A DNA stretch of 62,751 nucleotides, filler included, from Collodictyon triciliatum (Eukaryota), in assembly GCA_043381765.1 (NCBI GenBank). It is 46 parts of 46 records of this genome, joined end to end, with 100 filler letters (N's around TTAATTAATTAA, not from the genome) between each part and the next. Parts side by side here need not be neighbours in the genome. Positions count along the whole stretch, not along the records: positions 2,750 to 4,021 come from JBHJMP010011599.1; positions 4,122 to 5,393 come from JBHJMP010011600.1; positions 5,494 to 6,765 come from JBHJMP010011601.1; 43 more parts are not named here. The stretch is one strand, 5' to 3'. Below, piece after piece: positions 1-46,422 of the stretch (position 1 is the stretch's first letter; each line of letters starts with the position of its first letter). The notes beneath the pieces are model-generated. The model was not told the origin of the DNA, ran no database searches, and saw only the letters and a list, made by a program, of their open reading frames with translations. The position numbers and the translations under genes are program-made.

Positions 1-1143
1 ATTTATTCAAGAAATACGCAATCAGCAGTTGGGAAGGGATTCAGTTCGCTTCTAAAAAGATATGAGGAATCTCAAAAAGAGCATGAGAAGATGTTGATAA
101 GAATGGAGAGTTCAATGTCTAGAGGTGTTTATGACGACGTTGACATTAGGGTTGGAAAAATCACAAATAACCTGAGAAAGCTTGTTGATATTGATGTTCG
201 CATTGGGGATGAAGCTAAGATACTCCAGATTGTTAAGCCCGGAAAAGGTCGCGTGTGGGCTCAGAGAGAAATATCAAACTACAAAAATCTGATTAAAAGG
301 GTTGGTGTGCGTGGTTCTGGGCCTCTCCAATTTGATTGGCCTTGGGGAATAACAACACACCCTGTCACCGGAAATATTTACATCACAGATCACGGAAACC
401 ACAGAGTTCAAGTTTTAACACCCAACTTGGAGTTAGTGTCAATATTTGGTCGCCAGGGGAGCGGGAACGGAGACTTTTGTTATCCAACCGGAGTCGCCAT
501 ATTCGAGGATGGATTCATTGCAATATCAGACAGTGGAGGAGCAGGCCAAGGCCGTGTGCAGATTTTTGATAGCGAGCATAATTATGTTGGATATGTTCCA
601 AATGGCGGTGCATCGAAGACATCGTCGTCACCCAAAAGCTTTGATGGGTTCAATAGTCCACGAGGCTTGGCGATAGATTCACAGGGTAATCTGTATGTCT
701 GTAATCTCAATAAAAACAGAGTCGATAAGTTTAACAAAGGATTGGAGTATGTTCTCTCCTTTGCAAACTCTGGCGATGGGCAAATGAATCAACCTCACAA
801 TATTTGGTTGAATAGCAAAGACGAGATATGTGTTCATGGATATGCTGAAAAGTCCAAAGTCTTTAATACAAATGGAGAATACCTTAAAACGGTGAACGCA
901 ATTAAATACAGAGATTGGTCTAATGGTCAGGAAGGGCCTGATGGGACGATGTTTTTCGCTGACTGTGTCTCCCACAAGACTTTTGTATACTCATCAGACG
1001 AACACCTCATTTTGGAGATTGGTGGGCACGGAAGCGGTGATGGAAGATTTAACACCCCGATGGGTTTATGCTGTGGTCTTGATGGAAGATTATACGTGTT
1101 GGAGTGCGAAAACAGAAGAGTCCAGTGCTTTGGTGCTGAATGA
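1..1143 (+). CDS. NHL-repeat beta-propeller protein (TRIM-NHL-like C-terminus), 5' partial, intronless here
   Basis: Frame open from base 1; repeated NHL motifs FDWPWGIT..IYITDHGNHRVQV, FCYPTGVA, FNSPRGLAIDSQGNLYV, FNTPMGL..LYVLECENRRVQCF. Confidence 0.9.
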   Translation: MYSRNTQSAVGKGFSSLLKRYEESQKEHEKMLIRMESSMSRGVYDDVDIRVGKITNNLRKLVDIDVRIGDEAKILQIVKPGKGRVWAQREISNYKNLIKRVGVRGSGPLQFDWPWGITTHPVTGNIYITDHGNHRVQVLTPNLELVSIFGRQGSGNGDFCYPTGVAIFEDGFIAISDSGGAGQGRVQIFDSEHNYVGYVPNGGASKTSSSPKSFDGFNSPRGLAIDSQGNLYVCNLNKNRVDKFNKGLEYVLSFANSGDGQMNQPHNIWLNSKDEICVHGYAEKSKVFNTNGEYLKTVNAIKYRDWSNGQEGPDGTMFFADCVSHKTFVYSSDEHLILEIGGHGSGDGRFNTPMGLCCGLDGRLYVLECENRRVQCFGAE

Positions 1144-1177
1144 AACAACCATCTGAATCGAAGGGCTTTCTTTCGCT

Positions 1178-3810: not shown

Positions 3811-4243
3811 CTGCAATATTAATCGGATAGAAGTATTAATCGTAATATATCACCGGCTTATTATGTAAAAAAAAAATATTATACAAAAATATGCGACAGA
3901 AGAAACTGTTGCGTAATATAAACAAGATTCATCGCATCGTTGATTATCGATTTTTGGTTTTTTTGGTTTTTTTGGTTTTTTTTTGGTTTTTTTTGGTTTT
4001 TTTTGGTTTTTTTTGGTTTTTNNNNNNNNNNNNNNNNNNNNNNNNNNNNNNNNNNNNNNNNNNNNTTAATTAATTAANNNNNNNNNNNNNNNNNNNNNNN
4101 NNNNNNNNNNNNNNNNNNNNNTAGGTTTTGTGTTTTTTTTTGTTTTTTTTTTTTTAACAGAGTTGACGGGGCAAGAGAGAACGATTCAGAACCAAGGTAA
4201 TTGAGGCCGTGGTTCCCTGACGTCAAAAATCTCCATCAACGTT

Positions 4244-4271
4244 TTTTTTTTTTCCTTTATTCGATTCAAAG
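4244..4271 (-). mobile_element. Ultra-short retroposed insert (LINE 3'-terminal 17-mer + GG + A tail) with 17-bp TSD
   Basis: Insert ttttttttttcctttattcgattcaaag flanked by aaatctccatcaacgtt (4227-4243) and aaatctccatcaatgtt (4272-4288), 16/17 identical; core matches the LINE end at 46139-46155. Confidence 0.85.
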
Positions 4272-4418
4272 AAATCTCCATCAATGTTAAATCCTGCCAG
4301 ATATTACAAAGATTTATTAAAACAAAATGGAAAGCTTTGTTTCACCCAGCGATCGCTAATATATTGAACCCTTATTCGCTAGCAATCTACTTTATGCACT
4401 AATAATCCGCAGTTCGAA

Positions 4419-4468
4419 AATATTGTTGGCACGGGCGCCAACAGCTAAGTCTGTCGTGAATAAAAAAA
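4419..4468 (+). mobile_element. ~50-nt retroposed insert with hairpin, AATAAA and A tail; ~15-bp TSD
   Basis: aatccgcagttcgaa (4404-4418) and aatccacagttcgaa (4469-4483) flank tgttggc-acgggc-gccaaca gctaagtctgtcgtgaataaaaaaaaa. Confidence 0.7.
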
Positions 4469-5493
4469 AATCCACAGTTCGAATATTTTAATTACTGATG
4501 TTTTCCGCCCTCACACCAATTTACTTAACAATTATATTTTCCATATATGCAATTCTAATATGTATATGATTTGAGATGAAGTGCATATTTTCTATATTTG
4601 GATATTCTTGAAAATGGGTCCGAATGAGGTATCATTTCCAAATGTAAACCAAAATCCGTCCCAGGTAGGTATGGTCTAGCAGATATTGGGGCGTTTGGGA
4701 AGGAGATTGCGAAGGCGTTTGCACAGATGAAGCATCAAAGTGTGAAAATCGTCAATGCAGCCTCATTAATCAATAATATATTACATGAATAAAGAAACGG
4801 GTATTTAATTAGTAAATAGAAGAAAATGTCCGCTCATATAGATTAATTTATTATATTTTCCATAATCATATAAAATTCAGCACATACAAAGCATGCGGAT
4901 CAATTCACTGAAATGCCTCTTCGCAAAAACCCAAGCGCCAAAGCCAACCCGTCACACACCAAACCTCTTCATTCTTTTATCTGACTCGAAGCGTCACGCA
5001 CAAAGCCCTACAAAGACCAATATCGCCTGCCAATGCCGCCAACCAAACTCTACCTAATTCCCATGTACGCAATTTGGAAGACTTTCTGTTGCAAGGCACC
5101 CAAACAGAAAGTAATAAACAGGCGGTGTGTTGTTTGTACCTTCATATTATACTCTCTCACCCGCCAGCCAGGATTCCCATTTATTTCTACTTTATTTAAA
5201 TCGACGCAAGTTTGGCGGATTTGGCCGTGGTTCTTTGACCTTTGGGTTTCTTGCAGCGCATTCTAAATCACATATTATTCGATATTTGTTTCTATGGGCC
5301 TGTAATAAGAGAATAATGAATTAATACAAATAGACTCCAATAAGAAAGTCGTCCCCTAAAAGGTTTGACCGGGTTGCACTAAATGGATTCCGCNNNNNNN
5401 NNNNNNNNNNNNNNNNNNNNNNNNNNNNNNNNNNNNNTTAATTAATTAANNNNNNNNNNNNNNNNNNNNNNNNNNNNNNNNNNNNNNNNNNNN

Positions 5494-5590
<97 letters not shown>

Positions 5591-5592
5591 AG

Positions 5593-6766
5593 GAAATGCT
5601 TACAAGGCTGCTAAAGCGCACGACAAGGCGTCTGAAGCCTTTGCTGGTGCTGCTACTTGCTATGAAAAGATGGATGAGTAAATAAAATATAAACCATATT
5701 ATTTTTTTTTAAAAAAAAACTGCATACAGTCATTTGATTGAGTTTGTGTTCACGATTTTTCCCCTTTATTCGATTCAAAGAGAGTTTGTGTTCACGATAA
5801 AATTTACTTGCATCAGTTACACAAAAATCTTCTGATTTTAAAATGAATTACAGACTTTTTCGAGCCGGTCGTTCTTTTGACCTTGCTGCTACGATGGCCA
5901 AAGAAACAAAGGATATGGATCGCACTGCAGAATATTATTCAAAAGCAAGTTATGCCTATAGAATGCATGGAAATTCAGACAAAGGTGCTGATATGATGTT
6001 CAAGGCTGCCAAGTTTGTCGATTATCAATATTTTTCAAACAAATTTATACCTTAATTATATTGCAGCAGTTTTTTATAGTTTCTTTCTGGGTGATAGAAC
6101 TCGAGTTATTTTGTAATCTAAATCAGGATAAAAGCACATTATTTTTGTGTATTGCGTGCTAAGAGTTTACACCTACATCATTTTTTAATTAGTAACTCTA
6201 TCTGATTTATTATTAATCTAAATGCTTTTCTTATGATTTTGACAGAGCCCTGGAAGAAGTCGATGAAAAAAGAGCGTTAGACAAGTATGTAGAAGCATGC
6301 GACCTATTCCAAACAGAAGGAAAGGACTTTTATTCAGGAGAGTGCTTCAGGAGCACAATAGCCTTTTGCTTGAAAATTAAGGCGTATGTATTAGAATACC
6401 TCTATTAATTTGCTCACAATTCAAAAATTTATCTAAACATGATTGTTTTTTTTCACCAGGTTTGACCAGGCAATTGCGATGATGGTTCGACAAATTGATG
6501 TTTTCCGACGAAATGACCAACGTTCCTACCTTAATAAGGTTTTTATAAGCATACTCTTTTGAAGGAAATACAAGGACAGGAAGAAGCGTTTTTTTTTTTT
6601 GATTGCTTTTCAAATATTAGATTAGAACTTTGCCTTACCTGGAATGCTTTTGTTTTGAGGAACTTAACATATCATGAATTGTATAGGCCATCCTGAGTAT
6701 CATCATCATCGATTTATATGGAGACGATTTTGTACGAGCTGAACTCGATTTCCGAAAATATTCAGN
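5593..6766 (+). CDS. NAPG: Gamma-SNAP (NSF attachment protein gamma), internal 5 exons
   Basis: Spliced product GNAYKAAKAHDKASEAF..CYEKMDELFRAGRSFDLAA..YSKASYAYRMHGNSDKGADMMFKAAKALEEVDEKRALDKYVEACDLF..FDQAI..AILSIIIIDLYGDDFVRAE; GT-AG introns with consistent phase. Confidence 0.85.
5757..5781 (-). mobile_element. Ultra-short retroposed insert (same 17-mer core) with perfect 17-bp TSD, inside a gamma-SNAP intron
   Basis: gagtttgtgttcacgat at 5740-5756 and 5782-5798 flank ttttcccctttattcgattcaaaga. Confidence 0.88.
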
Positions 6767-8136: not shown

Positions 8137-8312
8137 NNNNNNNNNNNNNNNNNNNNNNNNNNNNNNNNNNNNNNNNNNNNTTAATTAATTAANNNNNNNN
8201 NNNNNNNNNNNNNNNNNNNNNNNNNNNNNNNNNNNNACTAAGTGTATGCAAGTACAAAACAAAGTGCTCGAAACGAAGGGAAAAATAAAATGTCTGGCTG
8301 CACGAGACTTAC

Positions 8313-9506
8313 AGTTTTCGTATTCGGGCATAGTGCAGAGCCTTTGAGGATTGTGTGTGAAGCAGTCTCCGTCGTTCGATAAACAGAGAATTGGGCTTCG
8401 AATGTTCCCATAGCCAGACACAATTTGCACTATTTTCACAAGAGAAATTCAATTTTTCTCCTTCATGCATGCATAAAATTCTTCCGTATGAATTATAACA
8501 AAAATATCGGCTAGGTGTGTGCTTGCACAAAACAAAGTGCTCGAAACGAAGTGAGAGATGAACATAATTTCTGGTAACACGAGACTTACGGTTTTCGTAT
8601 TCCGGCATAGTGCAGAGCCTTTGCGGTTCTTGTGTGTGAAGCAGACTTCGTCATATTCCGGCATAGTGCAGAGCCTTTGCGGGTCTTGTGTGAAGCAAAC
8701 TTCGTCGTTTGATAAACAGGGAATCGGGCCTCGAATGTTCACATAGCCGGACACAATTTGCACTATTTTCACAAGAGAAATTCAATTTTTCTCCTTTATG
8801 GATGTGTACAATTCTTCCGTATGAATTATAAAAAAAAATCTACTAATTGTGTGCTTGCACAAAACAAAGTACTCGAATCAAAGCGAAACTAAAAATAGAA
8901 TTTCTGGTTGCACGGGACTTACGGTTTTTGTATTCCGGCATAGTACAGAGCCTTTGCAGTTCTTGTGTGAAGTAGACTTTGTCGCAGTCAGGCATAACGC
9001 ACAGCCTTTGCGGGTCTTGCGTGGAGCAGACTTCGTCGACGTTCGGCATAGTGGAGAGCCTTTGCGGGTCTTGTGTGAAGCAGACTTCGTCGACGTTCGG
9101 CATAGTGGAGATCCTTTGCAGTTCTTGTGTGAAGCAGACTTTGTCGCAGTCCGGCATAGTGGGGAGCCTTTGCGGGTCTTGTGTAGAGCAGACTGCGTCG
9201 ACGTTCGGCATAGTGCAGAGCCTTTGCGGGTCTTGTGTAGAGCAGACTGCGTCATATCCCGGCATAGTGGAGATCCTTTGCAGGTCTTGTGTGAAGCAGA
9301 CTTCGTCGACGTTCGGCATAGTGGGGAGCCTTTGCGGGTCTTGTGTGAAGCAGACTTCGTCGACGTTCGGCATAGTGGAGATTCTTTGCGGGTCTTGTGT
9401 GGAGCAGACTTCGTCGCAGTACGGCATAGTGGAGAGCCTTTGTGGTTATCGGCCCTCATGGGTCTTGCGCGTGAAGCGGACTTCATGTGTGTACTTGTGT
9501 GACCGT
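8313..9506 (-). CDS. Putative Cys-containing 18-aa repeat protein built from tandemly duplicated exon+intron units; one exon frameshifted
   Basis: Minus-strand GTAAGT donors after 8923, 8590 and 8313; AATAG acceptors before 8762 and 8429; all phase 1; repeat MPNVDEVCFTQDPQRLCT. Confidence 0.55.
8935..9485. repeat. 54-bp minisatellite, ~10 copies, nested in a ~280-330-bp higher-order repeat (8237-8930)
   Basis: Unit cggcatagtggagagcctttgcgggtcttgtgtgaagcagacttcgtcgacgtt repeated head-to-tail with point variants. Confidence 0.95.
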
Positions 9507-9743: not shown

Positions 9744-9858
9744 TTTTGTTCCTTAATTCGATTCAAAGTGCAGCGCGGTTTTGCCATATAAAGAGACGAG
9801 ATAAGTGCGCGTGGTAGAAAGCAAACGCGAGTAGAAGACACCACCGTAGAAAGGCTAG
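9744..9858 (-). mobile_element. 5'-truncated (~110 nt) copy of the LINE 3' end
   Basis: Aligns with 46139-46248 (ttcgattcaaagtgcag..gccata.aaag..agcaaacgcgagtag..gaagacac.accgt.ga); degenerate 17-bp TSD at 9719-9735 and 9859-9875 (13/17). Confidence 0.8.
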
Positions 9859-11810: not shown

Positions 11811-12445
11811 TGTGTTAAAATTTGCTATGGTAATCACGCTTTGAAGAACAAATTGGATGTGATTTTGAAAGAAAAAATTAGATGTGATTTTGAAAGAAAA
11901 AAAGAAAGAAGTCTCGTGGATATGCTCCAAAAAACCCACCAAATAGAAATACACATGGCAATCTTATATCGTCCAAGTTTTCCTCGGCATCAAAATCCAA
12001 CAAATCAATCCACTAGGAAGGAGGAATTTTTTTTAAACTACATCAACCAACTTCATGAAACAATCAAGAGGAGTAATTCTTTCACATTCAACTTCGCTGC
12101 GATAAGTTTTATTTTTAAAACTTAAGACATTATTGACTGATTGTTTGATTGTTTGATTGTTTGATTGTTTGATTGTTTGATTGTTTGATTGTTTGATTGT
12201 TTGATTGTTTGATTGTTTGATTGTTTGATTGTTTGATTGTTTGATTNNNNNNNNNNNNNNNNNNNNNNNNNNNNNNNNNNNNNNNNNNNNTTAATTAATT
12301 AANNNNNNNNNNNNNNNNNNNNNNNNNNNNNNNNNNNNNNNNNNNNAAAAGAAAAAAAAGAAAAAAAGAAAAAAGAAAGAAAAAAAGAAAAATCATATAT
12401 GATACAAACACAAACCATCCCACCCAGTGATAAAGTAAACTCTTG

Positions 12446-13318
12446 CATAATCCCGTGGCATAATCCCGTGTCATAATCCCGTGGCATAATCCCATACCAT
12501 AATTCCGTGGCATAATCCAGTATCATAATCCCGTGGCATAATCCCGTGGCATAATCCTGTGTAATAATCCAGTGTCTTAATCCCGTGTCATAATCCCGTG
12601 TCATAATCCCGTATCATAATCCCATAGTGCCATAATCCCGTGGCATAATCCCATAGCATAATCCCGTGGCTTAATCCCGTGCCATAATCCTGTGTCATAA
12701 TCCCGTGGCATAATCCCGTGGCATAATCCCGTATCATAATCCCATAGCATAATCCCGTATCATAACCCCGCGGCATAATCTCGTGTCATAATCCCGTGGC
12801 ATAATCCCATGCCATAATCCCGTGGCATAATCCCGTATCATATCTCGTAGTGTCATAATCTCGTGGCATAATCCCGTGGCATAATCCCATGCCATAACCC
12901 CGTAGCATAATCCAGTATCATAATCTCGTGCATAATCCCGTGGCTTAATCCCGTGCCATAATCCTGTGTCATAATCCCATATCATAATCCAGTATCATAA
13001 TCTCGTGCATAATCCCGTGACATAATCCCGTAGCAAAATCCTGTGTCATAATCCAGCGTCATAATCCTGTGTCATAATCCAGTATCATAATCCCGTGTCA
13101 TAATCAGGTATCATAATCCTGTATCTTAATCCTGTATCATAATCCCGTATCATAACCCGTGGCATAATCCCGTGTCATAATCCCGTGGCATAATCCCGTG
13201 GCATAATCCCGTGTATAATCCCGTATTATAATCCCGTGGCATAATCCCGTGGAATAATCCAGTATCATAATCCCGCAGTATAATCCTGTGCATAATCCCG
13301 TAGCATAATCCCGTAGCA
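12446..13318. repeat. Degenerate 11-13-bp satellite, consensus ATAATCCCGTGGC
   Basis: About 870 bp of head-to-tail units with a near-invariant ATAATCC core and variable 3' half (CGTGGC, CGTGTC, CGTATC, AGTATC, CATAGC). Confidence 0.93.
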
Positions 13319-14622
13319 TGTCTCATCAGGAGCTGCTACATGGACATATTTATAAAAAAAAGTTCAGTACATCTTAAACTCCATTTACTTTTTTTTTTTG
13401 ATCTTTTCACCTTCCACTTTTCTTTTTCGTTATTTTCTCTTTTTAATTTCCCTTCACGCAACTCATTTTGTCTTTTGAGTTTTGCAAGAGCCCTTTTTCT
13501 CTCCCTCGCTTCTTTTCCCGTTTATCGTACTCCTCATTTAACGGCCTCTTTTTTTTTTCATATTTTTTTTATTTAATTTAATTTTGGGAATCAGCATCGT
13601 CGTCACTCATTCTACNNNNNNNNNNNNNNNNNNNNNNNNNNNNNNNNNNNNNNNNNNNNTTAATTAATTAANNNNNNNNNNNNNNNNNNNNNNNNNNNNN
13701 NNNNNNNNNNNNNNNCCACGCGGGGGAGGCTGACGCTCCACGTTCAATGATCCAAAAGCTAGAGAAGGGTTGGCACCCCTTTTTTCGCGCGCGTGATGCG
13801 CGAAGCAGCTTGAAGCAGCAGCCAGCAACCAACCAACCAAGCAGCAGTGTTTTGTCTCGACTGCCTTCCTCAAGTCATCTTTCAAGACTCACTCACACAT
13901 GTGCGAGCACACACGAGACTCGAACAGCCTTCGACTTGCTTTCGGCTGAATAATGCAGTGTTTTTACAATGACACGCACGAAGCTTCTCAAGTAAGTCTT
14001 TTCTTTCCTTTGCTTCTTCATTATGTTTTTTATTTTTCTGTCTTCAGAATTCTCTTTTTTATTTTGTTACAAATCAGACACGCACGAAGCTTTCTCACGA
14101 GTCATTTATCCCACTTTGCCACTTTTCTTTAGAATTTTGGCAAAAATTCCGCTTCATTCTGCCGCCCAAGCGCGAAGCTTCTTGTAAGTCTTACGTTATC
14201 AAATCATAATTTGTCTTGTCTTATGTTTTTTTTTGATTTCGTCGAACTTTGCCAAACTTTTTTATTTTCCAGTTATTGTGTTTTTCATGTTATTTTCAAT
14301 TAAAGTCTTCCAAATCAACCTTTTTTTCTTGCCAGCCGTCTAGTTTTCGCCGCTATCTCCGCTATCCTTACTATCGACGCTCAAAACCCCATTGCACATC
14401 CGAATCTCTGCTATTTATTTCGCAGCCGATTCGTCCCTCTTCTCTTTCCTGCTTTTCTTCCTGCCGCAACCAATGTTCTGCAACCCGTCACCTTCTCCCA
14501 TTCCCAAGCAATACGACACCAAACAAATAAACACTGCACAACCTGCTCACACAAAACTCGACTCATTCGTCTCCGGTTTCCTCAGACAGCGTCACAACCA
14601 CTTTCCGTCCCCCTCCACCGCC

Positions 14623-19515: not shown

Positions 19516-20623
19516 AGCCACCGAAAACAAATGAATAAATACAAAAACATACGGTTGAAAAATATAATATTTAGTTGACACAGATTCGTAAAGCATATGT
19601 TATATGGCAGAAATAATGTATTTTCCACAATTGTTCTTAATGAGCCTTTTGCTTCGCGATCGCCCACCTGCAATCACCAACCACACAAGCATCCAGGATT
19701 CTTCCCAACGAGCGATGAAACAGGTGGGCGAGCGGGAGAGTCGAAGCGCATTGTTCCGGAGGGGTTTTCTCTGCTTTTGCTTTCCAGAGGAAACCTGTTG
19801 CCAGCTCTCCTTTCCATATTGACCTTCACTACGCCCTCGATTTTGGAAGAAAGAAAAAAAAATGAAACAATCAAGTTATATATGACAAGAATTGGAAAAG
19901 CTATGATGCAACTACTCTGATTCGCTGCTGATAAGTTTTTAAAAAGGCTGTTTGATTCGTCGAGGCCGAGATTTTGTTGCTGATGAGTTACCGCGAGGCT
20001 GAAATCCCGCTCCTTTCGATTCCTGTCAGGAGCTACGAAAGCATCGCAACGTCAAGTGAATCCATTGAACTTGAAAAAAAACTATTATATTGTATTCTAT
20101 TTGATTCTATTTGATTCTATTTGATTCTATTTGATTCTATTTGATTCTATTTAATTCTATTTAATTCTATTTGATTCTATTTGATTCTATTTGATTCTAT
20201 TTGATTGCATTTGATTCTATTTGATTGTATTGTATTCTATTGTATTGTATTCTATTGTATTGTATTCTATTGTATTGTATTCTATTGTATTGTATTCTAT
20301 TGTATTCTATTGTATTCTATTGTATTCTATTGTATTCTATTGTATTCTATTGTATTCTATTGTATTCTATTGTATTCTATTGTATTCTATTGTATTCTAT
20401 TGTATTCTATTGTATTCTATTGTATTCTATTGTATTCTATTGTATTCTATTGTATTCTNNNNNNNNNNNNNNNNNNNNNNNNNNNNNNNNNNNNNNNNNN
20501 NNTTAATTAATTAANNNNNNNNNNNNNNNNNNNNNNNNNNNNNNNNNNNNNNNNNNNNCAAGCACATCACAGAAGTAACAAATGAAAACAAAAAAAAAAA
20601 AATAATCTGGGATATATTTGTAG

Positions 20624-34127: not shown

Positions 34128-36958
34128 NNNNNNNNNNNNNNNNNNNNNNNNNNNNNNNNNNNNNNNNNNNNTTAATTAATTAANNNNNNNNNNNNNNNNN
34201 NNNNNNNNNNNNNNNNNNNNNNNNNNNCCACGGACCATACGACCGGACAAAAAGCTGAAAGAAATCATGCAAGCCTTGTATACACATGCCGATGAATAGC
34301 CCAGCACACGGGTTAGTATATTTGTGTTTACATGGTGACTGCTACTTTGGGAAATGATTGTTTTCTTTACATAGACTGTGTGTATATTTTTGGAACAATA
34401 GTCCGACTCTCAGATGCGCGGTGGTGGGTCAGAATGAATTTAATCAAGGAATGAGCGAGAGAGATTGGTATATCTTACAGTATATCTATCACACAGCTAA
34501 TTATACAGACAATATCATATGGTGTATCTCTTGAATGAGAATCTCCAAGGCTTATGATACAAGTCATACAAAAATATGTGAAAAGAAATCCAATCCAACT
34601 TTGGAAAGGTAGAAGAGATGTTTGCTTCCGACCTTGTTGGTTTACTTGCACAAAACACGAAAGCATCATGATTCAATACCGCTGAAATGGGTGATTGTAC
34701 AAATACATATAAAGAGCAATAGCACATTCGAATACTTTGATTACTCACAGGTTGGACGAGATACGATTACATAATGAAGGTGTATATAGTCGGCGTTGTT
34801 AAGCGTGAAACAATAGAAGAAGAAAAGGACGAGGATAGAGGAATTAATGCCTGAATGAGAAAGCGGATGTCTGGAGGAAGATATCAGACAGATTAAACGT
34901 CATTATGGGGAGTCATATTCACCGTGCTAATACGTCCTATTGGTTGTAGCATGGTGGATTTTTATAAGACTTCGCATGGGTCTCAACTCAATGGCAATAG
35001 CTACATGGTCGAAAAGTAAATAGTATTTAGAGTAATTCGAGGATATAGGCGCGTTCTTGGTGGTATCCATCCTGTGACACACCTTTAGTATCTCTTTTAT
35101 TTGAAGAATGGAGGATTTAGTTTTCTATTTCAAGAAGCGAGATTCACAAATCACTCCAACAGAGTCTCAAACACGACTATCTCCTTTTCGACATAATTTT
35201 TAATGAGGCATCTCTACATTTTCATGTTGATTATTTTTTATCTGCTAAATAAATATTAGTATGAGGAATGAAGGGACTATGCAGCTTGATATGGAGGATT
35301 GGGGACCTTTTAAGAAGATTCTTTATGGACCAGTAGTTTGATGGTTAAGGAAATGATGCGCGCATGGAAGGAAGCAAGGGCGTCATTCGTTTCTATTTTT
35401 AAAGCCTCTGCGTTTATTCTCTGTTTTTGGTGTCTTTGGGGACTAAAAAACGAGTATGCCATTTCATGAAAAGAATATATTGAGAATAGCAGGNNNNNNN
35501 NNNNNNNNNNNNNNNNNNNNNNNNNNNNNNNNNNNNNTTAATTAATTAANNNNNNNNNNNNNNNNNNNNNNNNNNNNNNNNNNNNNNNNNNNNTTTCTTT
35601 TTGTCTTGTTTCCTTTTTGGAGGCGGATAGATGATTGCGGGAAGAAAAAAAAAACGAGGATGATTACCGGAGAAAGCAGATGAACAACCACGTTTCCGCA
35701 ATCCACCGCCATCCAATCGTCCGTGTCTTTGCCTATTGTTTTGCAGAAGTGTTAGTAAAAGGGAGTGAATTAGTGCATACGACACAAAGAACGAAAACCT
35801 TCCACTCTTATCCCTGCTGCCTCGCTGATAACTGCGCCTCGGTATATCAAAGGCTCATTCCGAGAGCGAAGCTTTGTGAAGGGCAGTTAGAAACACTCTG
35901 ACAAGGTATCATTTTGAAGAGGATGTGACCAATACGTTCTTTTGGTCCATTTACACACGTGAGAGTGAAATGAGGGAATTAATAATCTACAAACCATAGA
36001 GACAATTGAGTCCGACATGGCGCGGAGATGAGAGGTTGATAGCCCCGTAGCAAAAATCAGATAATCACAGTAGTCGCATCGGTCAGCAACATGGAATATC
36101 TGAAATTGGATATGAAAAAAAAATTATTATCAAATGCGATACTTAACCAATACCCCATGTATGCACATTCGGGTCTAGACTTCTTTGGGGGAGGGAAAGG
36201 AAGAATGAAAGAAAAGCATACGCGAATACTGTTTCCATTCTCTTGCGATATACAGTTCAACACCCGTGAAAGCATTGGCGGTCCAGCAAGTTCCACATAC
36301 CTAAATCGTCTCACAATGTCTCATTACCGATGATTAATGTATTAATTCATTAATTTTTATTATTATTTTTTTTTTACAAATATACCTTATTTCACTTAAA
36401 GAGTGTATCTTTTTTTAAGTAGACGCATTTCTTACAAGCATAAAATACATTTATCTCTATGATCGAATAAAGAATGAAAACGAAGATAGAGAGGAAGAAA
36501 AAAAATATCTCCTCTAAAGCTCCCACCAGGGCTTCTCTTTAACAGTCTGTCCGATGTTTCGAAGGGTGTTGTCCGGCAAAGTCCGCGTGCTTTTTTTCGC
36601 TCGCAGCTTCTTTTTCAGCTCCTCCAAGTCATTTGGCTCCTCCTGCTCCAATCACAAATGTTTCGAGCACCAAAAAGAGAAAAAGAAAAGAAAACAAGCG
36701 AGAGATGGTAAAATTAGATAGATTGTTATAATTATAATTTTATTATTATCATTATCATCATCATTAACATTATCATTATCATTATCATTATCATTATCAT
36801 TATCATTATCATTATCATTATCATTATCATTATCATTATCATTATCATTATCATTATCNNNNNNNNNNNNNNNNNNNNNNNNNNNNNNNNNNNNNNNNNN
36901 NNTTAATTAATTAANNNNNNNNNNNNNNNNNNNNNNNNNNNNNNNNNNNNNNNNNNNN

Positions 36959-41219: not shown

Positions 41220-42149
41220 TTTAAGTTCCACTGTAAACTTGGCGAGGGTTCCAGAAGTGATCCGCTCAGGAAGGCTGCTGGTGGGCAAGCATAAAGGATG
41301 ATGCAAATCGGCAGGGATGACATCAAAATAGAACGGACTGTTTTTGATCTCTTGGCCATCACACAGTATCTTCATGGTATATTTGCCACTAGTAGCGAGT
41401 TTAATTATCTTTTATATAAAAAAACAGAAAAAAATAATGACATAGAGAAATCGAATCGAAGTAAATTAATAGTTGGTTGAGAGAGAAATAGATCGGTGCA
41501 ACCTTAGAGAGGTGCTATAATTATGAGTGTATCGGCCGTCTTTCTCGTATATAAATGCTATTTCTAGATAAAGAATTTAAAATATGCTAGTAAGATACAG
41601 GTTCAGCTTCATTTATGTATCGTTTTTATTTATTTTCATTACGATTATTATTAATGTCTTCGATTTTAAATGGCGAAATGAAAAAGTAGTGGCTAAGGTT
41701 GTCATTAATATCTTAAAATCGAATAAAGGGAAAGATATTTGTATAAATATGAGCCAAAGTATAGGTAGCATGTATTTATATGAAAATTTACCTTCTGAAC
41801 GTGACTCGCTCTCAATATTTGCTACCAGACTTGAATCACCAGAATGTACTTCATTTTCACAGCCATCACAAATCTTGGATAAGTTATAAATGTAAGATAT
41901 GCATATGCTTTACAAGACGCACTGACATAAGGATGGAATAGTGATATATTCGTAAATAATCACATGAACGAACGGATGTAAAAACAAGTATATCTTATTC
42001 GGATAGAAAGAAAAAATGAGATTGATTTGGCAATTATCCAGTAAGGAAAATGCAAAGAATTACCAGAGCTGTTATTGCCTTCACTTCACCAGCGACCAGA
42101 GTTTTTGGAAATCCTCCAATGACATACGAGTTAGATGCCCTTACGTCAC
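41220..42149 (-). CDS. Filamin/ABP280 Ig-repeat protein, internal exons
   Basis: SNSYVIGGFPKTLVAGE..|..KDGRYTHNY..|SGKYTMKILCDGQEIKNSPFYFDVIP..SGTLAKFTVELK; G.Y.....G..I..SPF is the filamin repeat signature. Confidence 0.82.
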
Positions 42150-46131: not shown

Positions 46132-46422
46132 TTTTTTTCTTTATTCGATTCAAAGTGCAGTGAGGTAATGCCATACAAAGGGGCGGGATGGGAGCGCATA
46201 GTACAGAGCAAACGCGAGTAGGGGAAGACACTACCGTGGAGAGTCTAGCACTGGAAAGAAATCAGTGATAGCGAGCTGGTCAGGTGGGCGTCCCAACTGG
46301 TTGATTGGTTGCATGGACAGCAGGGGTTGGATATGCTGTGGGAGATATCGCACGACACATTCCCACATCTCTCTTCGCTTGCGGTCAGAGTAGCGAAGAA
46401 TGCGAGCGTGTTTCAGCATGCT
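46132..46422 (-). mobile_element. 3' end of a non-LTR retrotransposon: ORF end (..GRPPDQLAITDFFPVLDSPR*), ~90-nt 3'UTR, AATAAA and A tail
   Basis: ORF stops at 46231; UTR ends ctttgaatcgaataaag-aaaaaaa; truncated TSD-flanked copies at 9744, 5757 and 4244. No RT domain lies in this contig. Confidence 0.75.

Follow-up and report, generated by a model that had tools for sequence, protein, structure and literature searches.

The window analysed here is a stretch of 62,751 bases from the Collodictyon triciliatum assembly GCA_043381765.1, made up of 46 contigs of 1254-1277 bp (about 1.26 kb) that stand in falling size order, form a bin of unplaced contigs and are joined via N44-TTAATTAATTAA-N44 linkers. 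Two separate contigs of this window, 4122-5393 and 5494-6765, carry very short inserts that consist of the 3' tip of a long interspersed nuclear element (LINE) and an A tail, each lying between direct repeats that we read as target-site duplications (TSDs). The process behind these micro-inserts is ordinary L1-type retroposition. What is unusual is their size, with only 17 nt of the element copied, and the single dominant point at which the element sequence ends.

Two young micro-inserts and a third short retroposon

The core shared by the inserts is the 17-mer CTTTGAATCGAATAAAG, which occurs exactly at three places in the window, all on the minus strand (4255-4271, 5764-5780 and 46139-46155), and inexactly at two more, 9752-9768 (minus strand, one mismatch) and 41712-41728 (plus strand, two mismatches). 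These five matches at two or fewer mismatches compare with 0.03 expected from 100 shuffles, and raising the limit to three mismatches returns the same five against 0.63 expected. A 13-nt match at 36462-36474 was set aside as chance, having neither tail nor duplication. The first-pass annotation had described the same tiny insert between direct repeats on two contigs, and this description holds in full, with lengths of 28 and 25 nt, repeats identical at 16/17 and 17/17 positions, and TTT|A target sites. The features are as follows.

4227-4243, minus strand: TSD of micro-insert 1, tail side, 16/17 identical to 4272-4288; its last two T may be tail
4244-4271, minus strand: micro-insert 1, 28 nt, the 17-mer (4255-4271) with one extra G (4254) and A10-12, flanked by direct repeats
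4272-4288, minus strand: TSD of micro-insert 1, 5' side; its last base is the T preceding the 17-mer
5740-5756, minus strand: TSD of micro-insert 2, tail side, 17/17 identical to 5782-5798
5757-5781, minus strand: micro-insert 2, 25 nt, an extra T (5781, A on the plus strand), the 17-mer (5764-5780), GGG and AAAA
5782-5798, minus strand: TSD of micro-insert 2, 5' side, 17/17 identical to 5740-5756

Read on the sense strand of the element, copy 1 runs AACATTGATGGAGATTT, then 17-mer, G and A(10-12), then AACGTTGATGGAGATTT, and copy 2 runs ATCGTGAACACAAACTC, then T, 17-mer, GGG and AAAA, then ATCGTGAACACAAACTC again. The poly(A) tail directly adjoins the duplication in both cases (A10-12 with the 16/17 repeats, A4 with the 17/17 repeats), the flanks before the duplications end in TTT (copy 1) and TTTT (copy 2), and the duplications themselves start with A. 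Micro-insert 2 lies antisense in a short intron, between the first two exons seen of a gamma-SNAP-like gene whose exons (GNAYKAAKAHDKASEAF..., LFRAGRSFDLAATMAKE...) occupy 5592-6765 on the plus strand.

In a scan of the window for A runs after which comes a 14-mer also present upstream (at most one mismatch), 15 rows were obtained, as against one row in total from ten shuffles. Twelve of the 15 fall in the internally repetitive contigs 8237-9506 and 12347-13615; the other three are micro-inserts 1 and 2 and one new insert. The first of the repetitive contigs consists of 54-nt (and 108-nt) tandem coding-like repeats, with several frames open and weak B-box and EGF-like Pfam matches, and it yields false duplication-like rows in repeat scans. 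The second, 12347-13615, is a long array of the 13-nt unit CATAATCCCGTGG plus variants. The new insert shares its contig with micro-insert 1, lies on the opposite (plus) strand and is of unrelated sequence.

4404-4418, plus strand: TSD of the third insert, 5' side, 14/15 identical to 4469-4483
4419-4468, plus strand: third micro-retroposon, 50 nt, made of 43 nt of a different tail with GTGAATAAA at its end, then A7
4469-4483, plus strand: TSD of the third insert, 3' side

For copies 1 and 2 and the third insert the nick sites read GGATTT|AAC, ATTTT|ATC and CTAAT|AAT, with TSDs of 17, 17 and 15 bp, respectively. No parent for the third insert was found in the window, in prokaryote genomes or in viral contigs.

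Independent sequence came from small shares of freshwater, lake-water and subsurface metagenome sequencing runs, whose assembled contigs were compared with the contig at 4122-5393 only. Contigs from four lake or freshwater runs match parts of it with 0-6 letter differences per 150-206 nt, and the organism or a near relative is therefore present in such samples. One of these contigs, record 3 of run X2, matches 4469-4674, and its 19 letters before 4469 match only 4385-4403 (17/19). It therefore joins 4403 to 4469 and represents the empty state of the site, in which the 15-mer stands once. It is direct evidence that very short tails have been retroposed recently in this lineage.

The parent LINE and the shared 5' boundary

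The source of the 17-mer is a LINE whose open reading frame 2 (ORF2) end and 3' untranslated region (UTR) are seen in the window, together with an older truncated copy.

46234-46422, minus strand: end of the LINE ORF2, last 63 codons, translated without interruption and followed by a TAG stop; the copy leaves at the contig end
46139-46230, minus strand: LINE 3' UTR, 92 nt, of which the final 17 nt (46139-46155) are the 17-mer, with AATAAA inside
46132-46138, minus strand: A7 tail of this long LINE copy
9745-9858, minus strand: older 5'-truncated LINE copy of ~110 nt (3' UTR and a few codons), with GCA before the 17-mer

That the 17-mer is the exact 3' tip of a LINE, as first proposed, is thus borne out, and the element's identity is supported by the zf-RVT domain at the ORF2 end in L002, a metagenome contig about 95% identical to the window copy over the tail (zf-RVT lies upstream in L002, 1.5e-7). 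The product of 46234-46422 is 44% identical (E 8e-13) to the C-terminus of P0003, a protein of 253 aa that is itself 62% identical to the zf-RVT-bearing ORF end of L002. In a set of four distant relatives of full length (1226-1275 aa, with 25-38% identity across the C-terminal region), Exo_endo_phos and RVT_1 occur in all four and zf-RVT in three, a domain layout that is that of L1-type ORF2 proteins. The parent is on this sequence evidence an L1-like LINE; only its ORF2 C-terminus is seen, and the endonuclease and RVT_1 are read from the distant relatives only. As to the copy of ~110 nt, the first-pass annotation was right that it is real (about 79% identity over 117 nt), whereas the duplication ascribed to it is only a plausible decayed match, judged by eye.

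In L002, the ORF2 end (205-1157, minus strand) is split over two frames, one of 202 aa that ends at 549 and one of 133 aa spanning 205-606; P0003 reads through, and the L002 copy is therefore frameshifted. Word-based homologue searches gave no match, either for a 402-aa ORF or, among longer proteins, for the LINE ORF end. A metagenome scan for the 17-mer followed by RRRAA returned three loci, of which L002 is the only LINE; the same scan gave three chance bacterial matches in prokaryote genomes and none in viral sequence, and none of these scans produced a new micro copy. Five exact matches to the 22-nt pattern (L001 and L003-L006), in contigs of bacterial or metagenome origin, were discarded as chance in AT-rich Bacteroidota-type DNA with unrelated flanks. 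Between AATAAA and the A tail, copies differ in their G count, which ranges from 1 to 4 (46138-46139, 9751-9752, 4254, 5761-5763, 41729-41730 and L002); this could reflect slippage, untemplated addition or different source copies.

Copies 1 and 2 leave LINE homology at one identical base. The first-pass annotation had noted this common boundary from those two copies; with two more found (41712-41728 and record 4 of lake-metagenome run X3) it now extends to all four micro copies. The first addition is entered as follows.

41711-41735, plus strand: probable old micro copy, T, the 17-mer (2 mismatches), GG and AAAG; preceded on its 5' side by non-LINE sequence

From its sequence this match is probably an old micro copy, and a decayed duplication there is possible at most. 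The second addition came from run X3, where two contigs match 4242-4271/2 (tail, G and 17-mer). Of these, record 5 runs on into the LINE UTR as an L002-like variant; in record 4 the LINE homology breaks off at exactly the base where it does in copies 1 and 2, and 86 letters absent from the window follow. Record 4 had been selected only for tail and 17-mer, and any greater length of LINE was possible. It reads as a fourth micro copy, from a locus outside the window. Its loose letters fit a duplication of ~15 bp, but the consensus mixes two records and no duplication is claimed; the junction itself must come from reads, although the two flanks may not belong together.

The base before the 17-mer separates the two classes of copy. 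It is T in 4/4 micro copies versus A in 4/4 longer copies (those at 9.7k and 46k, L002 and X3 record 5), all of which run on as ...CA|CTTTG. In copy 2 the T at -1 lies outside both the duplication and the LINE. Microhomology is absent from the 5' junctions of both young copies. Tails of 4-12 A and 1-3 extra G all share the same 5' base, and the boundary is therefore set by sequence and not by distance from the primer.

Folding does not account for this boundary. Self-complementarity of CTTT and AAAG at the ends of the core had been noted at first pass, and a hard stop of the reverse transcriptase at a 3' stem-loop proposed as one option; neither is supported. For the final 169-171 nt of the LINE, folding is no stronger than in shuffled sequence (z 0.53 and -0.68), and the folds of the two copies disagree; that of the micro unit, at -0.5 to -1.3 kcal/mol, is thermodynamically negligible and lies within the shuffle range. 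Both the stem-loop stop and the hairpin were rejected, with no significant or conserved structure at the boundary.

Mechanism and competing explanations

That the inserts are real products of target-primed reverse transcription by the L1-like LINE is close to certain, and that their 5' boundary is non-random, marking a discrete product class, is highly probable. The preferred mechanism, run-off of the reverse transcriptase on a short LINE RNA, is held more tentatively, at somewhat worse than even odds. The reading as a whole (L1-type target-primed inserts with a non-random 5' limit, with run-off on a shortened LINE RNA preferred) has in our estimate a probability of about 0.5.

In the proposed scheme, an apurinic-type endonuclease would nick a T-rich|A site, and the T-rich end would prime on the poly(A) tail of the LINE RNA. 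Copying would be confined to the last 17 nt of the 92-nt 3' UTR plus the short G run and A tail, and a second nick 15-17 bp away would give rise to the duplication. The template may be a LINE RNA of which only the 3' tip is left, such as a remnant of 5'-to-3' decay or cleavage shielded by tail-bound ORF2 protein. The reverse transcriptase would then run off the template 5' end and extend the cDNA by a single untemplated A (read as the T before the 17-mer), and the cDNA end would be joined to upstream target DNA without microhomology. Run-off is favoured because of the T at -1 in 4/4 copies, the extra T in copy 2, the lack of microhomology at the young junctions and the known untemplated addition by such enzymes: non-LTR reverse transcriptases (LTR, long terminal repeat) add untemplated nucleotides at template ends, an activity required for template jumping, according to the available part of PMC8857657. 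It is also supported by the third insert, in which a second tail family yields a 50-nt insert with an empty allele. The stronger proposal, that a 3'-terminal LINE RNA remnant of ~25-31 nt is a regular retrotransposition template copied end to end with one untemplated base, is doubtful.

Several points weigh against run-off and against the wider reading. The micro copies number only four. Of these, one has decayed (2 mismatches) and another is represented by no more than 30 loose letters from a de Bruijn contig; the X3 contigs come from a k=31 graph in which the shared stretch is 30 nt, and the flanks of record 4 may be from different loci. The T at -1 in copy 1 also fits the target; copy 2 alone shows it as extra, and a single extra base could also stem from end joining. 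Copy 1 (4244-4271) is bridged by no metagenome contig, and neither its empty nor its filled allele was seen. Small unplaced contigs, from which the first-pass annotation projected many copies across the genome, are a biased sample, and the copy density found here does not extrapolate to the genome. Finally, the observations would look alike if the enzyme favoured a stop on a full-length template, and potential truncation hotspots are reported for L1-mobilised SVA in the part of PMC10681720 available.

That last point leads to the main competitor, abortive reverse transcription on full-length LINE RNA, with a sequence-defined pause or dissociation 17 nt into the UTR (the enzyme might, for example, have to clear its own binding site at the RNA 3' end) and the cDNA sealed by host end-joining. 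An abortive stop also accounts for a fixed boundary, finds some precedent in the possible SVA hotspots just cited, and agrees with a boundary that keeps to the same 5' base through 1-3 extra G and 4-12 A. We nevertheless regard it as unlikely: no stable or conserved structure stands at or beside the boundary, a pause on a template that continues would not, taken alone, lead one to expect the untemplated T of copy 2, and intermediate lengths are rare, with no duplication-flanked copy of 18-100 nt in the window.

Considerably less probable is a self-standing micro-element, an 18-nt unit (T plus the 17-mer) with its tail that would exist as a small RNA of its own and be mobilised in trans by the LINE. 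The contrast at -1 between micro and long copies and the insert lengths of 25 and 28 nt speak for it. Its RNA would have to come from a variant source copy or from a processing product of small-RNA size (25-31 nt). Against it, a source copy in which T at -1 leads into LINE sequence did not turn up, a promoter cannot fit in a 25-nt unit, and Rfam found no RNA family in the window.

Ordinary random 5' truncation, with agreement at the boundary by coincidence, draws what strength it has from the small sample, which includes a decayed copy and a contig fragment, two weak cases out of four. The first-pass annotation had left room for coincidence, which is now very unlikely because the boundary is common to 4/4 micro copies. 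For three further of seven copies to fall on the base of the first, P is about 35 x (1/92)^3, roughly 5e-5, by our own rough estimate, which assumes ends spread evenly over just the 92-nt UTR; the duplication-flanked inserts also include no other short length. An origin other than retroposition, either filler copied from the LINE tail during double-strand-break repair or an assembly artefact, gains a little from the very small, unplaced contigs and is scarcely credible against three independent inserts that each show an A tail, a duplication of 15-17 bp and a T|A site, the same junction k-mers in an independent metagenome run, and the empty allele of the sister insert at 4419-4468.

Relation to known retroposons

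Truncation points of classic L1-type insertions are scattered and the inserts are usually hundreds of bases long, and for L1-type insertions a TSD of about 7-20 bp is expected, with nicking at a T-rich|A site. The micro-inserts resemble such 5'-truncated, 'dead on arrival' insertions in their A tail, 15-17-bp TSDs, T-rich|A nick and the L1-like ORF2 end of their parent, but differ in that only 17 nt of the element are present and one base ends 4/4 short copies. Likewise, they are comparable to short interspersed nuclear elements (SINEs) with a partner-LINE tail, in which the mobilised part is a LINE-derived 3' end plus tail, and here the identity to the LINE tip is 17/17. They are nevertheless not SINEs, because they lack a promoter-bearing head (tRNA, 7SL or 5S), for which they are too short, and Rfam gave 0 matches in the window; a SINE-type internal RNA polymerase III promoter head is absent from the 25-28-nt inserts. 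For scale, Platy-1 is called the 'shortest primate SINE' at about 100 bp in the part of PMC4864456 available, and the micro-inserts measure 25-28 nt.

With SVA they share non-uniform 5' ends of retro-copies, but the available part of PMC10681720 speaks of 'potential hotspots' within long elements, unlike the single dominant point 17 nt from the tail seen here. End-to-end template jumping with untemplated addition by the Bombyx R2 enzyme, as covered in the part of PMC8857657 available, would explain one extra junction base; that work was done in vitro with the R2 enzyme, whereas the element here is L1-like and the added base is inferred from one clear case. Structure-dependent ('stringent') 3'-end recognition differs as well, since no stable conserved hairpin was found at the LINE 3' end or at the stop point.

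The literature search found no description of a discrete LINE-tail retroposon of <=30 nt, which is weak evidence, as supplements and subscription journals lay outside the search; the 16-nt string occurs in no paper of the literature searched. Together, the data suggest a discrete and easily overlooked by-product of retrotransposition. If the boundary holds genome-wide, L1-type retrotransposition would leave a second, discrete scar far below the size handled by repeat maskers, and counts of LINE activity and insertion load would be too low. Every such scar brings a polyadenylation hexamer together with an A run, from which new 3' ends and microsatellites could arise, and one is already intronic. 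The fixed 5' end also offers a testable handle on which part of its RNA is held by the LINE reverse transcriptase, and on whether the 5' junction forms by run-off plus untemplated addition or by an internal stop. Should the remnant-template reading be true, the inserts would be the smallest known retroposon class, missed by repeat annotation, AATAAA signals and A runs would be scattered through introns genome-wide, and the 5' end would record where the ORF2 protein sits on its own RNA.

Elsewhere in the window, open frames gave Pfam matches to LRR, FG-GAP, WD40 with ephrin-receptor-like repeats, and B-box. Simple arrays occupy 20100-20370 and 5494-5590, among them 10- and 15-nt units (ATTCTATTTG, TATTGTATTC...) and, where a contig begins, an uninterrupted (ATA)n run.

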